Below, piece by piece: positions 34,995 through 62,071 of a stretch of 64,000 nucleotides of DNA (position 1 is the first letter of the stretch; each line of letters begins with the position of its first letter). Position numbers and translations under genes: made by a program. Below the pieces are notes generated by a model, which worked only from the letters and a program-made list of their open reading frames with translations, was not told the DNA's origin and ran no database searches. The DNA is taken from contig JARGFM010000014.1 of the NCBI GenBank assembly GCA_029210725.1, positions 42,519-106,518 on the forward strand. Direction: 5' to 3'. The stretch comes from Bacteroidales bacterium. Lineage in GTDB: Bacteria > Bacteroidota > Bacteroidia > Bacteroidales > GCA-2748055.

Positions 34995-35639
34995 TCAGGG
35001 TTTCTTCTTCTTATTAACATAGCGGCAAATCTGGCGAATGCCACATGTATCACAGGCCGGATTGCGTGCGGTACAGACATAACGGCCATGAAGGATCAGC
35101 CAGTGGTGAGCCAGCGGAATCTTATCTTCGGGAATGTACCTGACAAGTTGCATCTCGGCTTCATAGGGGTTCCTGGCCCTGCGGGTGAGTCCGATTCGCG
35201 CCGCTACCCGGAAGACATGCGTATCCACAGCCATGGCCGGTTTCCGGAAAACCACAGAGAGTATCACATTGGCCGTTTTGCGTCCCACACCGGGCAATTC
35301 CTGCAGTTCTTCCAGGGTATCGGGGACCATTCCCCGGAACTTCTGATCCAGCACGCGGGCCATTCCCAGCAGGTGCCTGGCTTTGTTGTTGGGGTAGGAA
35401 CAAGTCTTTATTAACTCCAGTACCTGCTCCTGCCTGGCAGCCGCCAGGGATGCCGCATCGGGAAAGATTCTGAAGAAGGAGGGGGTAATCAGATTGACCC
35501 GCTTATCGGTACACTGGGCAGAGAGGATGACCGCCACCAGGAGTTCATAGGGATCCGAATATTCCAGTTCGGTTTCTGCCACCGGCATCTCCCTGAAAAA
35601 ATAGTCGATCACTTTTTCAAATCTCTCCGCTGTTTTCAC
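34995..35639 (-). CDS. nth: Endonuclease III
   Basis: 214-aa ORF with the HhH-GPD block LPGVGRKTANV, the catalytic block VDTHVFRV, and the 4Fe-4S cluster motif C-x6-C-x2-C-x5-C (CTARNPACDTCGIRQIC). Confidence 0.9.
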   Translation of the reverse strand: MKTAERFEKVIDYFFREMPVAETELEYSDPYELLVAVILSAQCTDKRVNLITPSFFRIFPDAASLAAARQEQVLELIKTCSYPNNKARHLLGMARVLDQKFRGMVPDTLEELQELPGVGRKTANVILSVVFRKPAMAVDTHVFRVAARIGLTRRARNPYEAEMQLVRYIPEDKIPLAHHWLILHGRYVCTARNPACDTCGIRQICRYVNKKKKP

Positions 35640-35698
35640 AAGGACAATATTAATAAAACTTTAGTTTTGCTCCTTACTCCTTACAGTTTGGAAGGTAG

Positions 35699-35730
35699 TT
35701 TGCTAATTTGCTAATAATTGTTTAAGTTTG
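35699..35730 (+). promoter_or_regulatory. Candidate Bacteroidota sigma-A promoter of the aromatic operon (-33 TTTG, 20-nt spacer, -7 TAAGTTTG)
   Basis: TTTG lies at 35699-35702 and TAAGTTTG at 35723-35730, matching the TTTG-N19-21-TAnnTTTG architecture. The -7 box ends 18 nt before the leader-peptide ATG. Further TTTG-containing repeats occur at 35662-35669 (TAGTTTTG), 35685-35690 and 35705-35710. Confidence 0.45.
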
Positions 35731-35748
35731 CATCCGATTGTAAGCTAC

Positions 35749-35799
35749 ATGGCATTCAGAAGTACCGTATATTATTTTTACTTTTTTACCTGCAGATAG
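35749..35799 (+). CDS. Phe/Tyr-rich leader peptide MAFRSTVYYFYFFTCR (16 codons) of the aromatic amino-acid operon
   Basis: The reading is ATG GCA TTC AGA AGT ACC GTA TAT TAT TTT TAC TTT TTT ACC TGC AGA TAG. Seven of 16 codons are Phe or Tyr, with six in a row at 35770-35787. The ORF sits between a promoter candidate and an intrinsic terminator directly upstream of pheA. Confidence 0.6.
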   Translation: MAFRSTVYYFYFFTCR

Positions 35800-35827
35800 C
35801 TGGTCGGGACTCTTTTATGCTTGCGAT

Positions 35828-35857
35828 ACCCGGCTGTTGAGTCGGGTTTTTTGTTTT
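35828..35857 (+). terminator. Attenuator (intrinsic terminator) preceding pheA
   Basis: ACCCGGCT (35828-35835) pairs with AGTCGGGT (35840-35847) around a GTTG loop, giving 8 bp including one G-U. TTTTTTGTTTT follows, ending at 35857, 7 nt before the pheA ATG. An upstream copy, GTCGGG at 35803-35808, can pair with CCCGGC at 35829-35834 as an antiterminator. Confidence 0.6.
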
Positions 35858-35863
35858 AGACCA

Positions 35864-36700
35864 ATGAAGAAAATAGCGATACAGGGCGGTTATGGGGCAT
35901 TCCACGAGATTGCTGCGCATCATTATTTTGAAAATGAGGAGATAGATATTCTTCCCAGAAATACTTTCAGGGATATGGTGAGCACTTTGAAAGATCAGCA
36001 ATGTGATTTTGGAATCATGGCCATAGAAAATTCACTGGCAGGCAGTATTATCCCCAACTACAACCTGATTATCAACACCAGCATGCATATTACCGGGGAG
36101 ATCTACCTGAGAATAAAACAGAACCTCGTGGCCCTTCCGGGTGTGAATATTTCGGAGATCAGGGAGGTCTATTCCCATCCCATGGCCATATTGCAGTGCC
36201 AGGACTTTTTTGATAAGCACCCCCACATCCGCCTGATCGAAAGTATGGATACGGCCCTGAGTGCGAAGGAGGTTGCCGATACGGGAGCCAGGGACCTGGG
36301 AGCTATATCCAGCAGGCTGGCAGCTGAAAAATATGGATTGGAGATCATTGCCGGGAGCATCGAGACCAATAAAATGAACTATACCCGCTTCCTGATCCTT
36401 TCAGAGAACGGAACGCGTACGCCGCCGGGGGAGGTAAATAAGGCCTCCGTTTTCTTTACCGTTGCGCATAAATTCGGATCCCTTTCAAAGATCCTATCCA
36501 TCCTGTCCTATTATGAGATCAACCTGGCCAAAATACAGTCCATGCCCATAGTTGGAAAGGATTGGGAATACATGTTCTTTGTGGATGTGGAGATAAATGA
36601 TTACGATATGTATAAAAGATCCCTGGAGGCCATCGGACCCTTTACCCCGTCCATTGGAATCCTGGGTGAATATAGAAAAGGAAAAACAGTCATTGAATAA
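35864..36700 (+). CDS. pheA: Prephenate dehydratase (PDT plus ACT domain)
   Basis: MKKIAIQGGYGAFHE..., a TRF-type block (NYTRFLIL), and a C-terminal ACT-like region with an ESRP-like IQSMP. The track start TTG 35837 lies inside the terminator, so ATG 35864 is preferred. Confidence 0.9.
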   Translation: MKKIAIQGGYGAFHEIAAHHYFENEEIDILPRNTFRDMVSTLKDQQCDFGIMAIENSLAGSIIPNYNLIINTSMHITGEIYLRIKQNLVALPGVNISEIREVYSHPMAILQCQDFFDKHPHIRLIESMDTALSAKEVADTGARDLGAISSRLAAEKYGLEIIAGSIETNKMNYTRFLILSENGTRTPPGEVNKASVFFTVAHKFGSLSKILSILSYYEINLAKIQSMPIVGKDWEYMFFVDVEINDYDMYKRSLEAIGPFTPSIGILGEYRKGKTVIE

Positions 36701-36709
36701 GCAGGAATT

Positions 36710-37795
36710 ATGGTAGTTGATGTAGCGCTTGAACCCATTTCCTTGGATGGGGAAATATTTAAAAAGCCTGTGATTATGGCAGGCCCCTGTAGTGCAGAAA
36801 CCGAGGAGCAGTTGATGAACACAGCAGTTCCCCTGGCAGAAATGGGAATTAAGATATTCAGGGCAGGAATATGGAAACCCCGTACCAGGCCCAATGCCTT
36901 TGAAGGAGTTGGTTCCATTGGATTAAAATGGTTACAGACGGTAAAGCGGGAAACCGGAATGCTGGTTGCAACCGAGGTGGCCAATGTAAAGCATGTATAT
37001 GAAGCCCTGAAGTTCGGAGTGGATATCATCTGGATCGGAGCCCGTACATCGGCAAATCCCTTTGCAGTCCAGGATATTGCCGACTCCCTTCGCGGAGTGA
37101 ATATTCCGGTAATGATCAAGAATCCTGTAAATCCGGATGTGGATCTCTGGATCGGAGCTATTGAACGGATCAACAACGCGGGTATTAAACAAATGGCTGC
37201 CATACACCGGGGGTTTTCCAGCTATGACAAAACCCTGTATCGGAATGTTCCCCAGTGGCAGGTGCCCATTGAATTGCGCAGGAGGATCCCGGAGATGCCC
37301 ATCATCACAGATCCCAGTCACATCTGCGGAAACCGGGAATTTCTGTATGATATCTCCCAGAAGGCGATGGATCTGAACTTCGACGGACTGATCATCGAAA
37401 CGCACTGCAATCCGGATAAGGCCCTGAGCGATGCGAAGCAGCAGGTAACCCCCGACGGATTGAAACAGATCCTCGACCGTCTGGTATTCCGGGATCCGGA
37501 GGTCAACGAGGAGTTAATGCTTACCCTGGCCGAACTGCGCGATCAAATCGATAAGCTGGACGACAGGATCATTAATCTGCTGGAGGAGAGAATGGGAATT
37601 TCAGAGAAGATCGGAAGCTATAAGAAGGATAATAATATTACCATTCTGCAGACCAAACGATGGGATGATATGTTGAAAACCAGGTTAAAACTTGGTGACA
37701 GAAAAGGGCTTAGTGAAGAGTTTATTATTAAATTGTACCGTTCCATTCACCAGGAGTCTATCAATCACCAGACCAGGGTGATGAACCAAGAGTAA
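36710..37795 (+). CDS. Bifunctional 3-deoxy-7-phosphoheptulonate (DAHP) synthase type I-beta / chorismate mutase type II
   Basis: The N-terminal roughly 265 aa resemble KDOPS-like DAHPS (GPCSAE, FRAGIWKPRT, DPSH). The C-terminal roughly 90 aa form a helical AroQ chorismate mutase (LRDQIDKLDDRIINLLEERM...). Confidence 0.9.
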   Translation: MVVDVALEPISLDGEIFKKPVIMAGPCSAETEEQLMNTAVPLAEMGIKIFRAGIWKPRTRPNAFEGVGSIGLKWLQTVKRETGMLVATEVANVKHVYEALKFGVDIIWIGARTSANPFAVQDIADSLRGVNIPVMIKNPVNPDVDLWIGAIERINNAGIKQMAAIHRGFSSYDKTLYRNVPQWQVPIELRRRIPEMPIITDPSHICGNREFLYDISQKAMDLNFDGLIIETHCNPDKALSDAKQQVTPDGLKQILDRLVFRDPEVNEELMLTLAELRDQIDKLDDRIINLLEERMGISEKIGSYKKDNNITILQTKRWDDMLKTRLKLGDRKGLSEEFIIKLYRSIHQESINHQTRVMNQE

Positions 37796-37799
37796 GATC

Positions 37800-38825
37800 A
37801 TGCATCAGCTAAGACTGACCACATCCGGAGGGGCCTCCGAGATCCTTGTTGGAGAGCTTCTTTCTTCCCGGCTTCAGGCGCTGGAGATGGAACCCATTTT
37901 GCTGATAGATGAGCTTGTGCTGCTTCATCACCACGATATTTTTGAGCCTTACAGGTCGCTTACCATTCCTTCCGGAGAGTCGCACAAGACCCTGCAAAGC
38001 GTGGAGGCCATCTACAGGCAGCTGGTGACTCTGGAGGCCGACCGCTCCACACTGATGATTGGGGTGGGGGGTGGATTGGCCACGGACGTGGCTGGTTTTG
38101 TGGCTTCCACTTTTCTTAGAGGAATGCCTTTTGGATTTATCTCCACCACTCTGCTGGGTCAGGTGGATGCCAGCATAGGAGGCAAGAACGGGGTGAATCT
38201 CGATGGCTATAAGAACATGATTGGAAATATCCGGCAACCTTCTTTTGTGTGGTGCGACCTTTCCCTGCTGACCAGCCTGGAAACCAGGCAGTATGTCTCC
38301 GGGATTGCCGAAGTGATCAAATACGGACTTATCCGGGATATCCGGTTTCTGGACTACCTCGGGGAGCATATGGAAGCCCTGCTGGGCCAGAAGGGAGAAG
38401 TGCTTGAACATGTGGTGAGTACTTCAGTTACTATAAAAAGTGAGGTGGTTCAGAAGGATGAACGAGAATCTGGTCTGCGGAAGATTCTTAATTTCGGGCA
38501 TACCTTCGGGCATGCCATTGAGCGTCACAAGGGCGTATTGCACGGCGAAGCGGTGGGGGTGGGGATGATCCTGGCAGCCAGGCTTTCTCACCTGCAGGGC
38601 CTGCTGTCGGCGCCGGAGGTGGACCGGGTCGAGCAGATGGTTCTTTCGGCCGGACTGCCTGCCCGCATGAAGCTGGATCCTGGTGAAATCTACGAGAATA
38701 TCAGGAAGGACAAGAAAAAGAGCGGAGAGGATGTACATCTGGTTCTGCTGAAAGGATTAGGGAATACCATCATCAGGCCCATGGCACTGTCGGAACTTAA
38801 ATCCCAGGTCAATGATCTGTGCTAG
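37800..38825 (+). CDS. aroB: 3-dehydroquinate synthase
   Basis: 341-aa ORF with the blocks GGGLATDVAGFVASTFLRG, VDASIGGKNGVN and NFGHTFGHAIE. Confidence 0.9.
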   Translation: MHQLRLTTSGGASEILVGELLSSRLQALEMEPILLIDELVLLHHHDIFEPYRSLTIPSGESHKTLQSVEAIYRQLVTLEADRSTLMIGVGGGLATDVAGFVASTFLRGMPFGFISTTLLGQVDASIGGKNGVNLDGYKNMIGNIRQPSFVWCDLSLLTSLETRQYVSGIAEVIKYGLIRDIRFLDYLGEHMEALLGQKGEVLEHVVSTSVTIKSEVVQKDERESGLRKILNFGHTFGHAIERHKGVLHGEAVGVGMILAARLSHLQGLLSAPEVDRVEQMVLSAGLPARMKLDPGEIYENIRKDKKKSGEDVHLVLLKGLGNTIIRPMALSELKSQVNDLC

Positions 38826-39447
38826 TGTTGCCCATATATCCGGTCTGGATGAGGCCATCAAATCGGGAGCCGGACTGATAGAGTTGAGACTCGACCTGAT
38901 TAAAGAGTCTCCGTCGAGGCTCTTTCCTCTGATGCCAAAAAACATGGAAACCATTGTTACCTGTCGTCCCGGAGTCTACAGTGATCCGGAGCGGACAGGA
39001 CTTTTGCAGGCGGGTATGAAGCTGGGTGCCGACTATGTGGATATTGAGCTCGAGTCGGATCGCGGAGCGATGGAGCAGTTGATTGGCACTGCCGGCACGA
39101 CGGGAACCAGGGTGATTATTTCCCATCACGATTTTATCAGGACGGCAGACCGGGAAGACCTGGAATCATTGATGAAAGCCTGTTACGAAAAGGGAGCGGA
39201 GATCGCGAAAATTGCCACCTGGGTGAACGCCCCGGAGGATATCCGTAAGCTGCTGAGTCTCTATGACTTTCCTGGCAAGAAGGTGATTCTTGGAATGGGG
39301 CCCCTGGGAAGGATTACCCGGGTAGTGGCCCCCTATCTGGGCGCTGTATTTACCTTTGCCTCCACCACTGAAGCAGATGAGACCGCTCCGGGACAGCTCA
39401 GTATAAAACAGTTAAATGAACTATATAAAGTGATTGATAACTCATGA
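38812..39447 (+). CDS. aroD: 3-dehydroquinate dehydratase, type I (short form, 211 aa)
   Basis: It has IELRLD and VDIEL blocks, a catalytic-His context (IISHHDF) and a Schiff-base Lys context (AEIAKIAT). It overlaps the aroB end by 14 nt and the aroC start by 4 nt. Confidence 0.8.
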   Translation: MICASVAHISGLDEAIKSGAGLIELRLDLIKESPSRLFPLMPKNMETIVTCRPGVYSDPERTGLLQAGMKLGADYVDIELESDRGAMEQLIGTAGTTGTRVIISHHDFIRTADREDLESLMKACYEKGAEIAKIATWVNAPEDIRKLLSLYDFPGKKVILGMGPLGRITRVVAPYLGAVFTFASTTEADETAPGQLSIKQLNELYKVIDNS

Positions 39448-40448
39448 ATACATTCGGTAGATTATTCAGAGTCAGTATTTTTGGCGAATCGCACGGAGAG
39501 TCTGTGGGTATTGTGATGGACGGGGTTCCTGCAGGAATTCCACTGAAACCATCGGATTTTGAAGAGGATTTTTCCAGGAGGAAAAGCGGTGCAAAAGGAA
39601 CCACTCCCAGGCAGGAACCTGACATTCCGGGGATCAAAAGCGGTGTCTTTAACGGCCATACTACCGGTGCTCCCTTAATGGTCCTTTTTGAAAATACAAA
39701 CACCCGGTCGAGAGACTACAGCCAGCTGAAGGATATTCCCAGGCCCGGGCATGCAGATTTTACCGCGCATCATAAATTCGGAGGGTACCAGGATTATCGG
39801 GGGGGCGGACATTTTTCGGGACGTCTGACCCTGGGACTGGTAGCTGCAGGTGTGCTGGCAAAAAAGATTCTTGCTCCCATGGAGGTAAGATCCGCGCTCC
39901 TGGAGGCAGGTGGCAGCAGCGATATTGAATCCGCCCTGAACCGGGCCATCGAGAACCAGGATTCCATCGGGGGGATTGTGGAGTGCAGGATATCCGGAGT
40001 TCCGCCCGGACTGGGAGAACCCTTCTTTGACTCGGTGGAGGCAGTGATGAGTCATATGATCTTTTCCATTCCAGCTATAAAGGGAATTGAGTTTGGTGCC
40101 GGATTCCGGGCTGCAAAGATGACCGGAAGTGAACATAATGATAATTTTATATCTACCAGCGGAACCACCGGGACCAACCGTGCAGGAGGAATCAACGGGG
40201 GAATATCCAACGGCAATGAGATTTATTTCAGGGTGGCCGTAAAACCAACCTCCAGCACACACCGGACCCAGCGTACTATGAATATGGCTACGGGCCAAAT
40301 GGAGGATCTCAGCATTGAAGGAAGACACGATACCTGCATTGCGCTGAGGGTTCCGGTGGTCGTAGAGGCGGCTGCCGCGCTGGTGATGGCCGATTTTTTG
40401 CTGCAGGCACAGGAAGCTGAACGAATTTTTAAACACAAATCTGAATAG
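39444..40448 (+). CDS. aroC: Chorismate synthase
   Basis: 334-aa ORF with the blocks FGESHG, PRPGHAD, GGGHFSGR, GINGGISNG and RHDTC. Confidence 0.9.
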   Translation: MNTFGRLFRVSIFGESHGESVGIVMDGVPAGIPLKPSDFEEDFSRRKSGAKGTTPRQEPDIPGIKSGVFNGHTTGAPLMVLFENTNTRSRDYSQLKDIPRPGHADFTAHHKFGGYQDYRGGGHFSGRLTLGLVAAGVLAKKILAPMEVRSALLEAGGSSDIESALNRAIENQDSIGGIVECRISGVPPGLGEPFFDSVEAVMSHMIFSIPAIKGIEFGAGFRAAKMTGSEHNDNFISTSGTTGTNRAGGINGGISNGNEIYFRVAVKPTSSTHRTQRTMNMATGQMEDLSIEGRHDTCIALRVPVVVEAAAALVMADFLLQAQEAERIFKHKSE

Positions 40449-40454
40449 AACGGA

Positions 40455-41237
40455 ATGCGAATAGCAATTATTGGAGCCGGAAACATGGGTTCGTGGCTGG
40501 TGGAGTCGCTCTGCCTCGATGATGAGGTGGGCATCTATGATGTGGATCGAAGTAAACTGAAATACTTCTTCAATTCCAGGAAATTTTTATACTATGAGGA
40601 GATCATGGACTTTTCACCAGACCTGCTGATCAATGCAGTGAGTCTGGATAAGACCCTCTCCGTTTTTGATGATATTGTCTCCTATCTTCCCAAAGACTGT
40701 ATTGTGGCTGATATCACTTCGGTAAAGAGCGGACTGGCTGAGTATTACAAAAAACTGAACCGGCGCTTTGTTTCCACCCACCCCATGTTTGGTCCCACTT
40801 TTGGAAATGTAAAGGACCTGAGCAATGAAAATGCCATAATTATCAAGGAATCGGATGAGGAAGGGAAGGCTTTTTTCAGGGAGTTTTACAGCAGTCTGAA
40901 AATTAGGGTTCATGAATACTCCTTTGAGGAGCATGATAAGACCATTGCCTATTCACTCTCCATTCCTTTCTCATCCACCATGGTATTTGCTGCCTGCATG
41001 AAGGAGCAGGAGGCACCGGGAACCACCTTTAAAAAACACTTCAGCATCGCTGAAGGATTGCTTTCGGAGGACGATTTCCTGCTCACCGAGATTCTGCTCA
41101 GTCCCCACAGCCTGAAACAGGTGGAACGGATCAGTGAACAGATGGATCGTTTGATAGAAATGATCAAAGCTCGTGACACGGAGCAGTTAAAGGTTTTTTT
41201 CCAGGGCCTGAGGCATAATCTAGGTCTGGAATCGTAG
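40455..41237 (+). CDS. tyrA: Prephenate dehydrogenase
   Basis: 260-aa ORF with the Rossmann start MRIAIIGAGNMG, VSTHPMFGP, and a helical C-terminal dimerisation domain. Confidence 0.8.
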   Translation: MRIAIIGAGNMGSWLVESLCLDDEVGIYDVDRSKLKYFFNSRKFLYYEEIMDFSPDLLINAVSLDKTLSVFDDIVSYLPKDCIVADITSVKSGLAEYYKKLNRRFVSTHPMFGPTFGNVKDLSNENAIIIKESDEEGKAFFREFYSSLKIRVHEYSFEEHDKTIAYSLSIPFSSTMVFAACMKEQEAPGTTFKKHFSIAEGLLSEDDFLLTEILLSPHSLKQVERISEQMDRLIEMIKARDTEQLKVFFQGLRHNLGLES

Positions 41238-42545
41238 AAGGAGCACCCGGCTGGTGGAAGGAGTGATCCGGAAGCGATGGTCGATTCGGTGCCCCATGAT
41301 CCATACGATTTTTTTTCCGGAGGCCATGATCCATATGCGTTCTTTTTCAGGGACCGGGACTTTTGTGTCCACAAAGAAATCGCTGAGCTTCTTCATCTGG
41401 TTCATGCCGAGCGGAAAGAAATAGTCTCCGTGCTGCCAGCGCCGGATGGTGAGGGGAAACTGTATCAGGTCCAGATCCAGGCAGGCTGTCCCGGGATCGT
41501 CCGGAATAAGCGGAAGCTCCGACCGGTCCAGTACCTCCATATCCATGGGAAAGGGCAGGGAGGAGTGTTTTTCCGGATCGTCCAGGTAATATCGTTCGAA
41601 GGAAGCGCTGTCCGATGGCACCAGGATCATCAGATTACGGTCCTTATAGAGCCGGTGAGTCGTGGAGATCGACAGGCGGCCCGGTCCGGAGTCCATAATT
41701 TTCCTGATCCCCTCACACTGAGAACGTGTAAATCCATAGGGAGAGAAAAGTTCATATATCCAGGTCTCCGGAGGGGTCAGGGCCCTGAGTTTTTCCGTAT
41801 CGATGCTGATCTTTCCATGCTTCCCCTTAAAGAGTTCCCGCCGGACCTTTTCAACGGAGTTTTGAAAGATCTCGTAGATCTCACCCAGCCGTTTCATATT
41901 CCCCTCCATGGTTTCCATAAAGCCCGGATTGATCTGTTCCATCACAGGAAGTACCCCGTGCCTGATCTTGTTTCTCTGGTACCTGCTCTCCTGGTTACTG
42001 GCATCTTCCCTGAATTCAATGGCATGCTGCTGCTGATAAGATTCAATCTGGGAACGCGAGGCAAAGAGAAGCGGTCTGATGATGTTTCCGCGTCTTGGTG
42101 AGATGCCTTTTAAACCTCTTAATCCCGAACCCCGGGACAGGTTCAGGAAGAAGGTTTCCACTGCATCGTTTTTGTTGTGAGCCGCAGCCAGGCGGTCCAG
42201 GCCGTGTTCGGTCAACAACTCTTCAAACCAGGCATAACGCAGATCCCTGGCGGCCATTTGCAGGGAGATGCCCTCTTGCTGCATTTCCTTCCGGACATCA
42301 AATCGTTTGACCTTAATCGGGATTTCCAGAGAACTGGCCAGTGAACGGACCAGCATTTCATCCAGATCTGAATCCTCTCCCCTGAGCTGAAAGTTGCAGT
42401 GGGCAATGCTGCATTCATATCCTGAGACTTTAAAAAGGTGGGCCATCACCACCGAATCGATACCTCCGCTTACCGCCAGGAGAATCCGGTGATCCGGTCT
42501 GCAAAGATCCAGTTCACTCAGAAAGCTGTTGAATCCCTCAAGCAT
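41220..42545 (-). CDS. tilS: tRNA(Ile)-lysidine synthetase
   Basis: 441-aa ORF with PP-loop LLAVSGGIDSVV and the blocks AHNKNDAVETFFLNL and IRPLL. Confidence 0.9.
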   Translation of the reverse strand: MLEGFNSFLSELDLCRPDHRILLAVSGGIDSVVMAHLFKVSGYECSIAHCNFQLRGEDSDLDEMLVRSLASSLEIPIKVKRFDVRKEMQQEGISLQMAARDLRYAWFEELLTEHGLDRLAAAHNKNDAVETFFLNLSRGSGLRGLKGISPRRGNIIRPLLFASRSQIESYQQQHAIEFREDASNQESRYQRNKIRHGVLPVMEQINPGFMETMEGNMKRLGEIYEIFQNSVEKVRRELFKGKHGKISIDTEKLRALTPPETWIYELFSPYGFTRSQCEGIRKIMDSGPGRLSISTTHRLYKDRNLMILVPSDSASFERYYLDDPEKHSSLPFPMDMEVLDRSELPLIPDDPGTACLDLDLIQFPLTIRRWQHGDYFFPLGMNQMKKLSDFFVDTKVPVPEKERIWIMASGKKIVWIMGHRIDHRFRITPSTSRVLLLRFQT

Positions 42546-42549
42546 GATT

Positions 42550-44475
42550 TTACTGCAGGCCGACTACACCGGGGCCCTGTTTAAAAACAATATCTACAGG
42601 AATATGAAGCAATTCAAGTCTCTCCAGGTCCGATTGCAGCTCCTCACGGATAAAGCCTTTCTCTTCCACCAGTCTTTTAGCCAGTTCATAATCGCCATCG
42701 CCCTGGGTGGTCAGAATCAGATTCGTCAGTTCGTACATAGCCTGCTGCATCGCTTCAAAATTGATGCTGTAAGTACCGTTCAGATCCCTCGCGAAGGCCC
42801 CCATCTCCTGGAAATAGTAGAAACGGATCATATTCGCTTTGCCGTGTGAACTGGCCACTCCAAAACGGATACTGCGGAAGATACTGGCCATAAAGGTCAC
42901 ATAGGTATCCATCAGGTCCCGTTCACCGAGCATACCCTCTTCGTACATTTTGGTGATCAGGAACAAAGAGAGAATATCTGCTTTTCCCTCTTCCAGGGCA
43001 CTGTACTGCTCTTTCAGGGCCGACCGAACCGTTCCTGAACCATGGATGGTCTGGTTCAGTCCCAGTCCGTGAGCCACCTCATGGAACATCACATTCTCGA
43101 AAAATGCATCAAAGGTGACGTGTTCGCGCTGCTCCTCTGCAATCAATACATTGCTGATGGGCAGGAGGATTTCCTCGAACTTGTACCGGATGGCATTTTT
43201 CAGCTGAAGTTTCCTGGAGCCTTTACCGGCCTGCACCCGTTCGTCATTGGGAAGGTTTATGGCAATGGTTTTGCTGCCTGCATTGCAATCGCCGGCATAA
43301 TAGATCACGTCGTAGGCTCCCAGATCGGATTGACTGCCCGGAACCTCCTGTTTGTAAACCTCCGGAACAGGCAGGCTCTTCTGCATTTGTGGAAGAACCG
43401 AGCTGATATAGGCCAGCTTTTCGCTCCAGCTTTTGTCTTTTATAAGGATGAAGGATTCATGAGCTGCCTTGTAATTGTAGAGTGCATCCTCATAGTTTTC
43501 TATGGGTCCCACCACAAAATCTATGTCATTCTCCTTCATATCCATCCAGGCCATATCCGAGGGGTAATAGTCGTCGGTCAGCAAGGCATCGGCCCTGAGT
43601 TTCAGGTATTTCTTAAACCCCTTATCTTCAGCTAAATCCGCGGCCTGTTTCAGTAATTCAGAGGCCTGTTTTAGCTGCCCGGCATAGGCTTCATGGTAGG
43701 GGACCACCTGTAAGGAACCATCCGGGTCCCTGGTGATCAGGGTATAGAGGCTGCTTTTTTCAGGATCATCCAGGGATTCAAATTCCTCCTTGCTCATGTC
43801 GGCCGGATAGTATCCTGAACCCCTGGGTTTTGGTCCGTAACCCGGGAGAAAGGGGAGGTTTCCGTTAAGACGCTCCCAGGGCCCGTAATTGATCTGAAAG
43901 AAACGGGCCACATGCTCATCCACCATGGAGGCCAGTGCGGCATCCCTGTCGGGAAATACCTGCGCCCAGTAAATATCATCCATGATATCGGCAACCTGGA
44001 AGAGCAATCCGATCATTTCTCTTTGATTATCTGAGAGATGAGAGAGGTCGGTTTTTAACTCCACCTCTGCAAACTCTTTCGCTTTGCGTTCCATGAGGTC
44101 GCTGAATTTTTCGAGACTGAGTTCTTTTTCAGTTTCAGTAAAACGGAGGAGCAGTTTCTTTTCCGTTTTAAGGTAAGTAAGAGCGCTCACCGTAAGTTCA
44201 CTATGAATGGGAATAGTGGTGGTGTAGCTGATTTGCTCCTCATTTTCTGAACTTTGCTGAATCGAGTAGACTTCGCCTTCCAGCTCGACCACATCGCCTT
44301 TCAAAGTAAAAAAAAGAGATTGGGGATCCGTGTACCTGCTTCCATCCTCATCTTCAATCTCAAAGCGGGGCAGGGTGCCTGAAAAAAGTTCGAACAGTCC
44401 TTTTTCCTGGTTACACCCCTGGAAAAGCAGAATAAATGTGGCAGACAGGAGCGGGACAAATGCATGTAGTTTCAT
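42550..44475 (-). CDS. Zinc metallopeptidase related to dipeptidyl-peptidase III (M49-like), lipoprotein
   Basis: Zinc motifs FHEVAHGLG (HExxH) and EEGKADILS (EExxAD). ATG 44475 gives MKLHAFVPLLSATFILLFQGC (lipobox). The track start at 44556 would overlap proS. Confidence 0.65.
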   Translation of the reverse strand: MKLHAFVPLLSATFILLFQGCNQEKGLFELFSGTLPRFEIEDEDGSRYTDPQSLFFTLKGDVVELEGEVYSIQQSSENEEQISYTTTIPIHSELTVSALTYLKTEKKLLLRFTETEKELSLEKFSDLMERKAKEFAEVELKTDLSHLSDNQREMIGLLFQVADIMDDIYWAQVFPDRDAALASMVDEHVARFFQINYGPWERLNGNLPFLPGYGPKPRGSGYYPADMSKEEFESLDDPEKSSLYTLITRDPDGSLQVVPYHEAYAGQLKQASELLKQAADLAEDKGFKKYLKLRADALLTDDYYPSDMAWMDMKENDIDFVVGPIENYEDALYNYKAAHESFILIKDKSWSEKLAYISSVLPQMQKSLPVPEVYKQEVPGSQSDLGAYDVIYYAGDCNAGSKTIAINLPNDERVQAGKGSRKLQLKNAIRYKFEEILLPISNVLIAEEQREHVTFDAFFENVMFHEVAHGLGLNQTIHGSGTVRSALKEQYSALEEGKADILSLFLITKMYEEGMLGERDLMDTYVTFMASIFRSIRFGVASSHGKANMIRFYYFQEMGAFARDLNGTYSINFEAMQQAMYELTNLILTTQGDGDYELAKRLVEEKGFIREELQSDLERLELLHIPVDIVFKQGPGVVGLQ

Positions 44476-44503
44476 GGGAGCGATTTTTATTTGGTAAAAA
44501 AAG

Positions 44504-45976
44504 TTAGTAGGCTTTCGCAATGACAACCCTCTTCCTGGAAGGCTTGCCACTAACAACGCACCGGCCCTCTTCCTCTACAGCGTTCAGCGGCAGGCAACGA
44601 ATGGTTGCCTTGGTTTCCTTGATCCGTTCTTCCGACTCGGGGCTCCCGTCCCAATGGGCCAGGGCAAAGCCACCCTTGTTTTCAAGCACGTCCACAAGCT
44701 CATCCCAGGTATCCACGCGATGTGTATGGGCATTCCTGAATTCCAGCGCTTTGTTATAGATATGCTCCTGGATATCCTCCAGCAGTGCTTTGATATAGGT
44801 GGCAAGTCCTTCCTGGGGAAGCACTTTCTTCTCCAGGGTATCCCTGCGGGCGAGCTCCACGGTTCCGTTTTCAATATCGCGAGGACCAATGGCAATTCGC
44901 ACCGGTACCCCTTTCAATTCATATTCGGCAAATTTCCAGCCCGGTTTCTGTGTATCGCGGTCATCATACTTCACTTCGATACCAAGTACCGTAAGGTCAT
45001 TTTTGATCTTATTAGCCACCTCTGTTATGGAAGGCAGCTCCTCATTGCCCCGGTAGATAGGCACAATAACCACTTGAATTGGAGCCACCCTGGGGGGAAG
45101 TACCAGACCATGGTTATCAGAATGTGCCATGATCAGCGCTCCGATCATCCGGGTAGTCATTCCCCATGAAGTAGCCCATACGTGGTCCAGTTTTCCCTCC
45201 CTGTTCGTAAACTGCACATCAAAGGCTTTGGCAAAGTTTTGTCCCAGGAAATGAGAGGTACCGGCCTGCAGGGCCTTCCCGTCCTGCATCAGTGCTTCAA
45301 TGGTCAGGGTCTCAACAGCTCCTGCAAATTTTTCTGACTCGGTTTTGCTCCCAAGCAGTACGGGAATGCCCAGGAATTTTTCCGAGAATTCGGCATAGAT
45401 ATTCACCATCCGGAGGGTCTCCTCTTCAGCCTCTTCCCGGGTGGCATGTGCCGTATGGCCTTCCTGCCACAGAAACTCGGACGTTCGGAGAAAAAGCCGG
45501 GTGCGCATCTCCCACCGGACCACGTTGGCCCACTGGTTAATCAGGATGGGCAGGTCCCGGTACGATTGAACCCAGTTCTTATAGGTGTTCCATATAATGG
45601 TCTCGGAGGTAGGCCTGACGATCAGTTCCTCTTCCAGCTTTGCTTCGGGGTCCACCATAAGTCCGCCATTTTTCTCATCGGCTTTCAGTCGATAGTGTGT
45701 GACTACGGCACATTCCTTGGCAAAACCCTCCACATGGTCGGCTTCCCTGCTGAAAAATGACTTTGGTATAAACAGAGGAAAATAGGCGTTCTCGTGCCCG
45801 GTTGCTTTAAACTTCCGGTCCAGTTCGGCCTTCATCTTCTCCCAGATGGCATATCCGTAAGGTTTGATCACCATACAACCCCTCACTGCCGAGTTCTCGG
45901 CGAGTCCTGACTTTAATACCAGATCGTTATACCACTGCGCGTAATTCTCTTCCCTGCTGGTTAATACTTTGGCCAT
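44504..45976 (-). CDS. proS: Proline--tRNA ligase (archaeal/eukaryote-like type)
   Basis: 490-aa ORF. The N-terminus [18 protein letters not shown]...[16 protein letters not shown] and class IIa motifs are present. The C-terminal zinc-binding-like domain ends in ...IAKAY. Confidence 0.95.
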
Positions 45977-61868: not shown

Positions 61869-61952
61869 GCCCAGATGGCGGAATTGGTAGACGCGCTAGT
61901 TTCAGGGACTAGTGTACGCAAGTACGTGCAGGTTCGAGTCCTGTTCTGGGCA
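61869..61952 (+). tRNA. tRNA-Leu (anticodon CAG)
   Basis: Hand-folded cloverleaf. Acceptor GCCCAGA/TCTGGGC, D-arm GCG-GAATTGGTAGA-CGC. Anticodon stem CTAGT/ACTAG with loop TTCAGGG. Long variable arm (GTAC-GCAA-GTAC) and T-arm GCAGG-TTCGAGT-CCTGT. Discriminator is A and CCA is not encoded. Confidence 0.9.
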
Positions 61953-61976
61953 CTTTTTCATTATTGATTTCTTTTT

Positions 61977-62062
61977 GCCCAGGTGGCGGAACTGGTAGAC
62001 GCGCTAGGTTGAGGGCCTAGTGACCGATTTTGGTCGTGCAAGTTCGATTCTTGTCCTGGGCA
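61977..62062 (+). tRNA. tRNA-Leu (anticodon GAG)
   Basis: Hand-folded cloverleaf. Acceptor GCCCAGG/CCTGGGC. Anticodon stem CTAGG/CCTAG with loop TTGAGGG. Long variable arm (GACCGATTTTGGTC) and T-arm GCAAG-TTCGATT-CTTGT. Discriminator is A and CCA is not encoded. Confidence 0.9.
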
Positions 62063-62071
62063 CAGTCCAAG

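Follow-up and report, generated by a model that had tools for sequence, protein, structure and literature searches.

A predicted Phe/Tyr leader-peptide attenuator preceding the aromatic amino-acid operon in an uncultured Bacteroidales lineage

How transcription of an aromatic amino-acid operon might be tuned to the supply of phenylalanine and tyrosine is the question raised by the spacer between nth and pheA in the genome of a Bacteroidales bacterium (GenBank assembly GCA_029210725.1). The stretch of DNA analyzed, referred to below as the window, comprises 64,000 nucleotides (nt) of contig JARGFM010000014.1 (positions 42,519 to 106,518 of the forward strand), and all coordinates are counted from its first base. 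A preliminary description of this stretch had proposed that a short open reading frame (ORF) rich in Phe and Tyr codons, together with a hairpin following it, forms a leader-peptide attenuator upstream of pheA. Here the locus was compared with its counterparts in related genomes, and the element is very probably a ribosome-mediated leader-peptide transcription attenuator of the six-gene aromatic amino-acid operon, a reading based on sequence and its conservation. We infer on the same grounds that transcription at this locus would terminate before pheA in response to Phe and Tyr.

The leader reading frame and its codon pattern

The comparison set was obtained in one scan of close PheA relatives and consists of 80 loci from species-representative genomes, with PheA 64–92% identical to the query. 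Two of these loci have almost no upstream DNA and the other 78 have at least 150 nt; counts given for 79 leaders include the leader of the window. A close clade of 40 species was used for a nucleotide alignment, termed A1, with a mean column identity of 71%. A mini-ORF rich in Phe and Tyr (F/Y) codons, followed by a GC-rich hairpin and a U-tract, was found before pheA in all 78 loci with enough upstream DNA as well as in the window. In the window the leader ORF MAFRSTVYYFYFFTCR spans 35749–35799 on the + strand, as do all leader features below, and has 16 codons followed by a TAG stop at 35797–35799; its assignment is supported by the sequence, by the orthologous leaders and by conservation of the ATG. 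Seven of the 16 codons specify Phe or Tyr and six of these are consecutive, forming the putative regulatory run YYFYFF (TAT TAT TTT TAC TTT TTT; codons 8–13, 35770–35787), identified from the codon pattern of the clade. The ORF is present as the preliminary description had given it, and this arrangement is conserved at 79 of 79 loci.

The 79 leaders comprise 75 distinct peptides, with medians of 16 aa in length, seven F/Y residues and an uninterrupted F/Y run of six. Of all residues in these peptides, 41% are Phe (331) or Tyr (252). The ATG start codon is conserved, being replaced by GTG in two species, and stop codons of all three kinds occur. Closer examination of the six run positions in 42 leaders from the clade of the window showed that 244 of 252 codons are TTT, TTC, TAT or TAC and that none is TTA, TTG, TAA or TAG, the variation among run codons being confined to T/C at the third base and T/A at the second. 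An F/Y run lacking these last four codons is a coding signature, since a drifting T-rich spacer would freely yield them. In its substitutions the leader behaves as a coding region does, which indicates, at the level of sequence, that the leader ORF is under selection for its translation; we infer that the leader is translated.

The leader is also exceptional within the window. Among 1026 ATG-initiated ORFs of 8–45 codons on both strands, it is the only one with at least six of seven consecutive residues belonging to one class, and among the small ORFs with at least five of seven such residues it alone precedes a terminator-like site; no other amino-acid-run leader with a terminator was found among the 1026 small ORFs of the 64-kb window.

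In some more distant leaders a Trp codon adjoins the F/Y run (L053, L057, L059, L061, L065, L068, L075 and L046; for example, ...AFWYFFYFYFF and ...TWYYYFFFF), and the window leader has no Trp codon. This hints, at the sequence level, that some distant lineages may also sense Trp.

Terminator, antiterminator and promoter

Three segments and a U-tract follow the codon run. Segment 2, GGTCGGG (35802–35808), is the candidate 5′ arm of an antiterminator and a copy of the terminator 3′ arm, and is nearly invariant in the 40 species. Segment 3, ACCCGGCT (35828–35835), is the terminator 5′ arm and also the antiterminator partner, and segment 4, AGTCGGGT (35840–35847), is the terminator 3′ arm, both being recognized by pattern scan and by conservation. 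The U-tract TTTTTGTTTT occupies 35848–35857, with a T run that is invariant in A1. Over the whole alignment there is almost no variation in segments 2 to 4 or in the U-tract, and the loop, the spacer and the N-terminus of the leader are variable. The terminator ACCCGGCT / GTTG / AGTCGGGT (35828–35847) is an 8-bp GC-rich stem with one G-U pair that was also called by the pattern scan; the stem ends 16 nt before the pheA ATG, and a predicted intrinsic terminator lies between the leader ORF and pheA in all 79 loci. The preliminary description had located this terminator at 35828–35857, where it is indeed found, with a U-tract that is one T too long if the last T of the stem is counted in the stem.

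The antiterminator proposed in that description, GTCGGG (35803–35808) paired with CCCGGC (35829–35834), is present, and a G35802–U35835 pair extends the helix to 7 bp. The comparison of energies that the description had called for gave computed hairpin values of −13.2 kcal/mol for the terminator and −9.3 kcal/mol for the antiterminator, the two helices being mutually exclusive; in A1, 95.6% and 96.8% of cells, respectively, can pair. The antiterminator was further assessed from the best pairing of the terminator 5′ arm with the spacer that follows the F/Y run. In the window this duplex of segments 2 and 3 scored z = −2.3 (p = 0.027) against shuffles of its own spacer, and 52 of the 79 loci (66%) had a duplex better than dinucleotide shuffles of the spacer at p < 0.05, with a median z of −2.1 across loci.

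When the RNA was folded as it would stand before segment 4 exists, segment 3 paired with segment 2 if there was no ribosome or if a ribosome footprint lay on the F/Y codons, and was unpaired if the footprint lay on the stop codon. In constrained folds of the full-length RNA at equilibrium the terminator always wins, which means that the switch has to work kinetically, as in classical systems. Two other pairings were considered and rejected: a 9-bp stem of 35737–35745 with 35819–35827, which appeared in the minimum free energy fold of the window and is absent from the consensus fold of 40 relatives, and an alternative antiterminator register of AGCUGG (35798–35803) with CCGGCU, seen in constrained folds, which reaches into the terminator loop, where the bases vary between species.

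Upstream of the leader ORF, a candidate −33 element, TTTG (35699–35702; TTG at 35700–35702 at least 90% conserved in the 40 species), and a candidate −7 element, TAAGTTTG (35723–35730, of the TAnnTTTG type; TA at 35723–24 and TTT at 35727–29 invariant in A1), are separated by a 20-nt spacer and fit the Bacteroidetes −33/−7 pattern. The arrangement had been noted before and is present and conserved in the 40 species. A generic sigma-70 scan made no call at the TTTG/TAAGTTTG site, as expected for a promoter of the Bacteroidetes type. The last base of the −7 box (35730) is G in the window, which gives the canonical Bacteroides consensus, and A in most relatives (TAGGTTTA). The position of the promoter would place the transcription start site (TSS) near 35736–35738, and the predicted 5′ untranslated region (UTR) of the leader is about 12 nt long and has no Shine-Dalgarno sequence. 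Translation initiation in Bacteroidota is largely without Shine-Dalgarno pairing.

The arrangement of leader units and the spacing to pheA differ at some of the other loci. In the more distant Bacteroidales loci L046, L054, L064 and L072, a tandem pair of complete F/Y attenuators is present in the 430 nt upstream of pheA, each unit having its own mini-ORF, terminator and upstream copy of the arm (the L046 peptides are MNLAGTYYFYFLICD followed by MYKLRDSYYYFYFYFWTEKDRG); tandem attenuators should give a sharper response. In one clade (L042, L044, L045, L047, L048, L051, L055, L058, L063 and L070) the terminator is 59–97 nt from the pheA ATG, compared with 16 nt in the clade of the window, and no obvious second leader was seen in this 59–97 nt spacer.

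Ribosome position and competing explanations

Segment 2 starts at a median of 14 nt past the last F/Y codon, and at least 9 nt past it in 99% of loci; counted from the first base of the stop codon, its end has a median position of +12, and in several clades the segment falls inside the ORF. The footprint of a ribosome reaches roughly 12–15 nt 3′ of the A-site codon. Taken together, these positions give the geometry that the ribosome-stalling model requires, so that the fit to the classical geometry noted for the window extends across loci. The positions in the sequence support the proposal that segment 2 would be masked once the ribosome is at the stop codon and left exposed while it is stalled on the F/Y run.

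In the proposed mechanism, transcription would begin near 35737 at the Bacteroidetes-type promoter and a ribosome would then translate the 16-codon leader. With Phe-tRNA and Tyr-tRNA plentiful, the ribosome would reach the TAG at 35797 and its footprint would mask GGUCGGG (35802–35808), allowing the terminator at 35828–35847 and its U-tract to form and RNA polymerase to stop before pheA. If either charged tRNA were scarce, the ribosome would stall on YYFYFF (35770–35787), 14 nt or more upstream of segment 2, which would be free to pair with CCCGGCU (35829–35835) once that is transcribed; the terminator would then be blocked and the operon read through.

Several observations weigh against this mechanism. 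Three features of the locus stand as predictions: the TSS, leader translation and the premature 3′ end. Because the terminator is thermodynamically the stronger of the two helices, the model requires kinetic, co-transcriptional control; the fold of the whole leader is no better than that of shuffles (z = −0.8). No double-sided compensatory changes were found in the terminator and antiterminator stems within the close clade of 40 species. Covariation tests in this clade are uninformative because the stems are nearly invariant; on sequence grounds this invariance is a mark of strong purifying selection and no proof for or against pairing. Between clades the stems do differ, with 33 distinct 5′ arms (examples being ACCCGGCT, ATCCCGGTT, AAGGTCCCGG, AACCCGCC and AAGTCCCAA), and the upstream segment changes in step. 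Cognate pairs of spacer and arm summed to −370 kcal/mol over the 33 arm types, compared with −328 ± 10 kcal/mol for permuted pairs (p about 1e-4). This cross-clade matching of arm copies is supportive, within the limit set by the small number of independent stem types. The alignment of upstream regions suggested by the preliminary description has thus yielded a conserved F/Y mini-ORF and arm copies that match between clades, and not the compensatory stem changes sought among close relatives.

A further difficulty is the helix that would be expected to protect segment 2. A candidate for such a 1:2 hairpin, or for a pause hairpin, is a tentative structure across the stop codon (ACCTGC / AGATA / GCTGGT, 35788–35804) obtained independently with RNAalifold on A1, which also recovers the terminator. 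Its cells are paired in 84% of cases compared with at most 45% in slid controls; its closing pair joins the last base of the stop codon (TAG/TAA) to that of the Cys/Gly codon two codons upstream, and the two bases covary, which keeps the hairpin closed: 20 of the 40 species have C-G and 12 show the double change to U-A. At −4.3 kcal/mol the hairpin, and with it the textbook 1:2 protector, is weak and uncertain here, and across all loci the stability of the 1:2 hairpin is no better than that of shuffles (z about −0.3). A strong 1:2 protector helix seems absent, and an untranslated leader is therefore predicted to default to read-through. A possible, and at present doubtful, elaboration is that of a three-segment attenuator without a working 1:2 protector, in which an untranslated leader is read through, Phe and Tyr signals are integrated and the 35788–35804 hairpin is a pause or timing element. 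If so, read-through of an untranslated leader would be the opposite of the "superattenuation" of Escherichia coli trp, and the hairpin would keep RNA polymerase in step with ribosomes whose initiation, on a 5′ UTR of about 12 nt, takes place without a Shine-Dalgarno sequence.

Whether the leader, even if translated and regulatory, reports something other than tRNA charging through alternative hairpins has also to be considered. As a nascent chain, the peptide might arrest the ribosome in response to free Phe or Tyr, much as TnaC responds to tryptophan, or ribosome occupancy might set Rho access or mRNA stability, the hairpin being merely a leaky terminator. The coding signature shows selection on translation and not a mechanism, and an antiterminator weaker than its terminator, along with a marginal 1:2 helix, would suit either version. 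However, arrest by the peptide fits poorly with leaders that are little conserved outside the F/Y run (75 distinct peptides, variable at both N and C termini), and both versions leave unexplained a conserved arm copy that co-varies between clades and keeps a fixed distance from the stop codon; this explanation is considered improbable.

Less probable still are two explanations that dispense with translation of the leader as the signal. The hairpin could act constitutively, separating divergent promoters as a partial terminator or insulator, with the T-rich "ORF" a by-product of AT-rich DNA, as T-rich runs are common in AT-rich spacers and the whole-leader fold is not significant. Such a by-product would hardly keep a frame with start (ATG; GTG at two loci) and stop at 79 of 79 loci, restrict its run codons to TTT, TTC, TAT and TAC with no TTA, TTG, TAA or TAG in 252, remain unique of its type among 1026 ORFs of the window and be linked, in every species, with an operon of aromatic amino-acid synthesis, and the explanation is regarded as very unlikely. 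Alternatively, the choice between terminator and antiterminator could be set by a trans-acting factor, be it a TRAP- or PyrR-like protein, an uncharged tRNA in the manner of a T-box, or the ligand of a small-molecule riboswitch, and a terminator/antiterminator pair by itself fits any such mechanism. This was examined with cmscan of 35300–36200 against all 4227 Rfam families at E ≤ 10, together with a scan of the whole window at the gathering score. No Rfam family matched the leader region, and the whole window gave only two tRNAs; the sub-threshold matches to MicX and rseX were rejected as chance, arising mostly via the terminator. Moreover, the leader is about 120 nt long and variable between its conserved segments, which leaves no space for an aptamer or T-box, and the conserved F/Y ORF would be unexplained. 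A trans-acting factor is accordingly given as little credence as an insulator.

Known attenuators and the operon

Leader-peptide attenuation of pheA is established in E. coli (pheL), as are the classical trp, his, leu, thr and ilv attenuators. The window element resembles these in having a short ORF rich in the regulated amino acid, a terminator that immediately precedes the first structural gene, an antiterminator that excludes it and the stall position of the ribosome as the proposed read-out. The E. coli pheL leader is Phe-only and controls pheA alone, whereas the window leader mixes Phe and Tyr codons ahead of an operon with both branches and the common pathway. It is also unlike the E. 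coli Phe_leader in giving no covariance-model match, in having no Shine-Dalgarno sequence and a predicted 5′ UTR of only about 12 nt, and in showing no convincing 1:2 protector.

None of the leader families in Rfam (Phe_leader, the Leu/phe leader RF01743 and Bacteroid-trp RF01692) matches 35300–36200 at E ≤ 10, and the leader element is outside every curated RNA family. Bacteroid-trp is a computationally defined cis-regulatory leader in Bacteroidetes (Weinberg et al. 2010, PMC2864571) and is similarly located before amino-acid biosynthesis genes; it differs in its amino acid and operon, and the window element does not match its model. Attenuation outside Proteobacteria has also been surveyed by comparative genomics, for example by Lopatovskaya et al. 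2010 (cited in PMC4833913). A literature search for experimental leader-peptide attenuation in Bacteroides returned only a general remark on leader-like small ORFs in long 5′ UTRs of B. thetaiotaomicron, and nothing was found on the pheA region of this species in the supplementary data examined.

The closest known counterpart comes from Flavobacterium psychrophilum, where a leader-peptide attenuator of pheA-aspC3, THC0290_N_0195, was reported by Guerin et al. (2021, ISME Commun, PMC9723704). For this leader the authors mapped a TSS, detected a separate 5′ transcript of 171 nt and observed read-through in minimal medium; they also reported that it is conserved in Flavobacteriaceae (PMC9723704). 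The view in the preliminary description that only comparative-genomics candidates exist in Bacteroidetes is therefore out of date, this element having transcriptome evidence of conditional read-through (PMC9723704). Folding of the published sequence in the present analysis gave a short ORF that carries an F/Y(W) run, MNTNNTFYSNNSFYFYWNIGRDCYMVI, and a segment 2, GGGATTGT, located 13 nt past the last F/Y codon, which pairs with the terminator 5′ arm ACAATCCC; a GC hairpin and U-tract come next. The two elements thus share the phylum, pheA as the first gene and the same three-segment architecture. They differ in that F. psychrophilum belongs to Flavobacteriia and the window to Bacteroidia, in their stem sequences, in the length of the leader (27 aa in F. 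psychrophilum and 16 in the window) and in the location of segment 2, which lies inside the ORF in F. psychrophilum and after the stop codon in the window. The operons also differ, being pheA-aspC3... in F. psychrophilum and pheA / DAHPS-CM / aroB / aroD / aroC / tyrA in the window. The two leaders are likened by architecture and not by sequence homology.

The window operon begins with pheA (35864–36700, +; ATG at 35864–35866), encoding prephenate dehydratase with an ACT domain (Pfam PDT, E = 4.8e-55). It continues on the same strand with genes for a fusion of DAHP synthase and chorismate mutase (DAHPS/CM; 36710–37795; Pfam DAHP_synth_1 and CM_2), 3-dehydroquinate synthase (aroB, 37800–38825; Pfam), type I 3-dehydroquinase (aroD, 38812–39447; Pfam) and chorismate synthase (aroC, 39444–40448; Pfam, E = 3.8e-114), and ends with a tyrA-like prephenate dehydrogenase gene (40455–41237; Pfam PDH_N, E = 1.2e-9). 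The six genes are densely packed, with intergenic gaps of 4–9 nt or overlaps. Upstream of the leader, nth (endonuclease III, from Pfam) is in divergent orientation, and the order nth(−) / pheA...tyrA(+) is complete at 53 of 80 loci, contig ends interrupting most of the others. The operon products (pheA, tyrA, DAHPS/CM, aroB, aroD and aroC) are the enzymes making the Phe and Tyr proposed to be sensed, as judged from Pfam content and synteny, and the match drawn earlier between a mixed Phe/Tyr leader and an operon with both branch enzymes and the common pathway is borne out by this Pfam content and by its conserved synteny. The closest PheA homologues (81–92% identity) are all from metagenome bins of uncultured Bacteroidota or Bacteroidales, and the assignment to this phylum therefore stands.

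At the other end of the operon, the 3′ end of tyrA (to 41237) overlaps by 18 nt (41220–41237) with the 3′ end of a convergent TilS-like gene (41220–42545, −; PP-loop and TilS_C domains), and there is no terminator between the two. A gene for an M49-family peptidase (42550–44556, −) is next after the TilS-like gene. Elsewhere in the window, two neighboring tRNA-Leu genes are located at 61869–61953 (anticodon CAG) and 61977–62063 (anticodon GAG).

The element belongs to a well-known kind, pheA attenuators having already been reported in Flavobacterium, so that it would come as no surprise to a specialist, and it reveals no new regulatory principle. What is new is its occurrence in an uncultured Bacteroidales lineage of about 80 species, and it is modestly distinctive in its proposed mixed Phe/Tyr sensing for a combined operon, in a very short leader without a Shine-Dalgarno sequence and in having no convincing protector helix. 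With about 80 species, 75 leader peptides and several stem variants, it provides a deeply conserved example of predicted attenuation, and the sequences gathered suffice as the seed for an Rfam family, none existing yet. One leader would sense two amino acids on behalf of a combined Phe, Tyr and common-pathway operon. Leader-peptide attenuation needs tight coupling of the first ribosome and RNA polymerase, and the element may therefore serve as a ready reporter for transcription-translation coupling in Bacteroidota.

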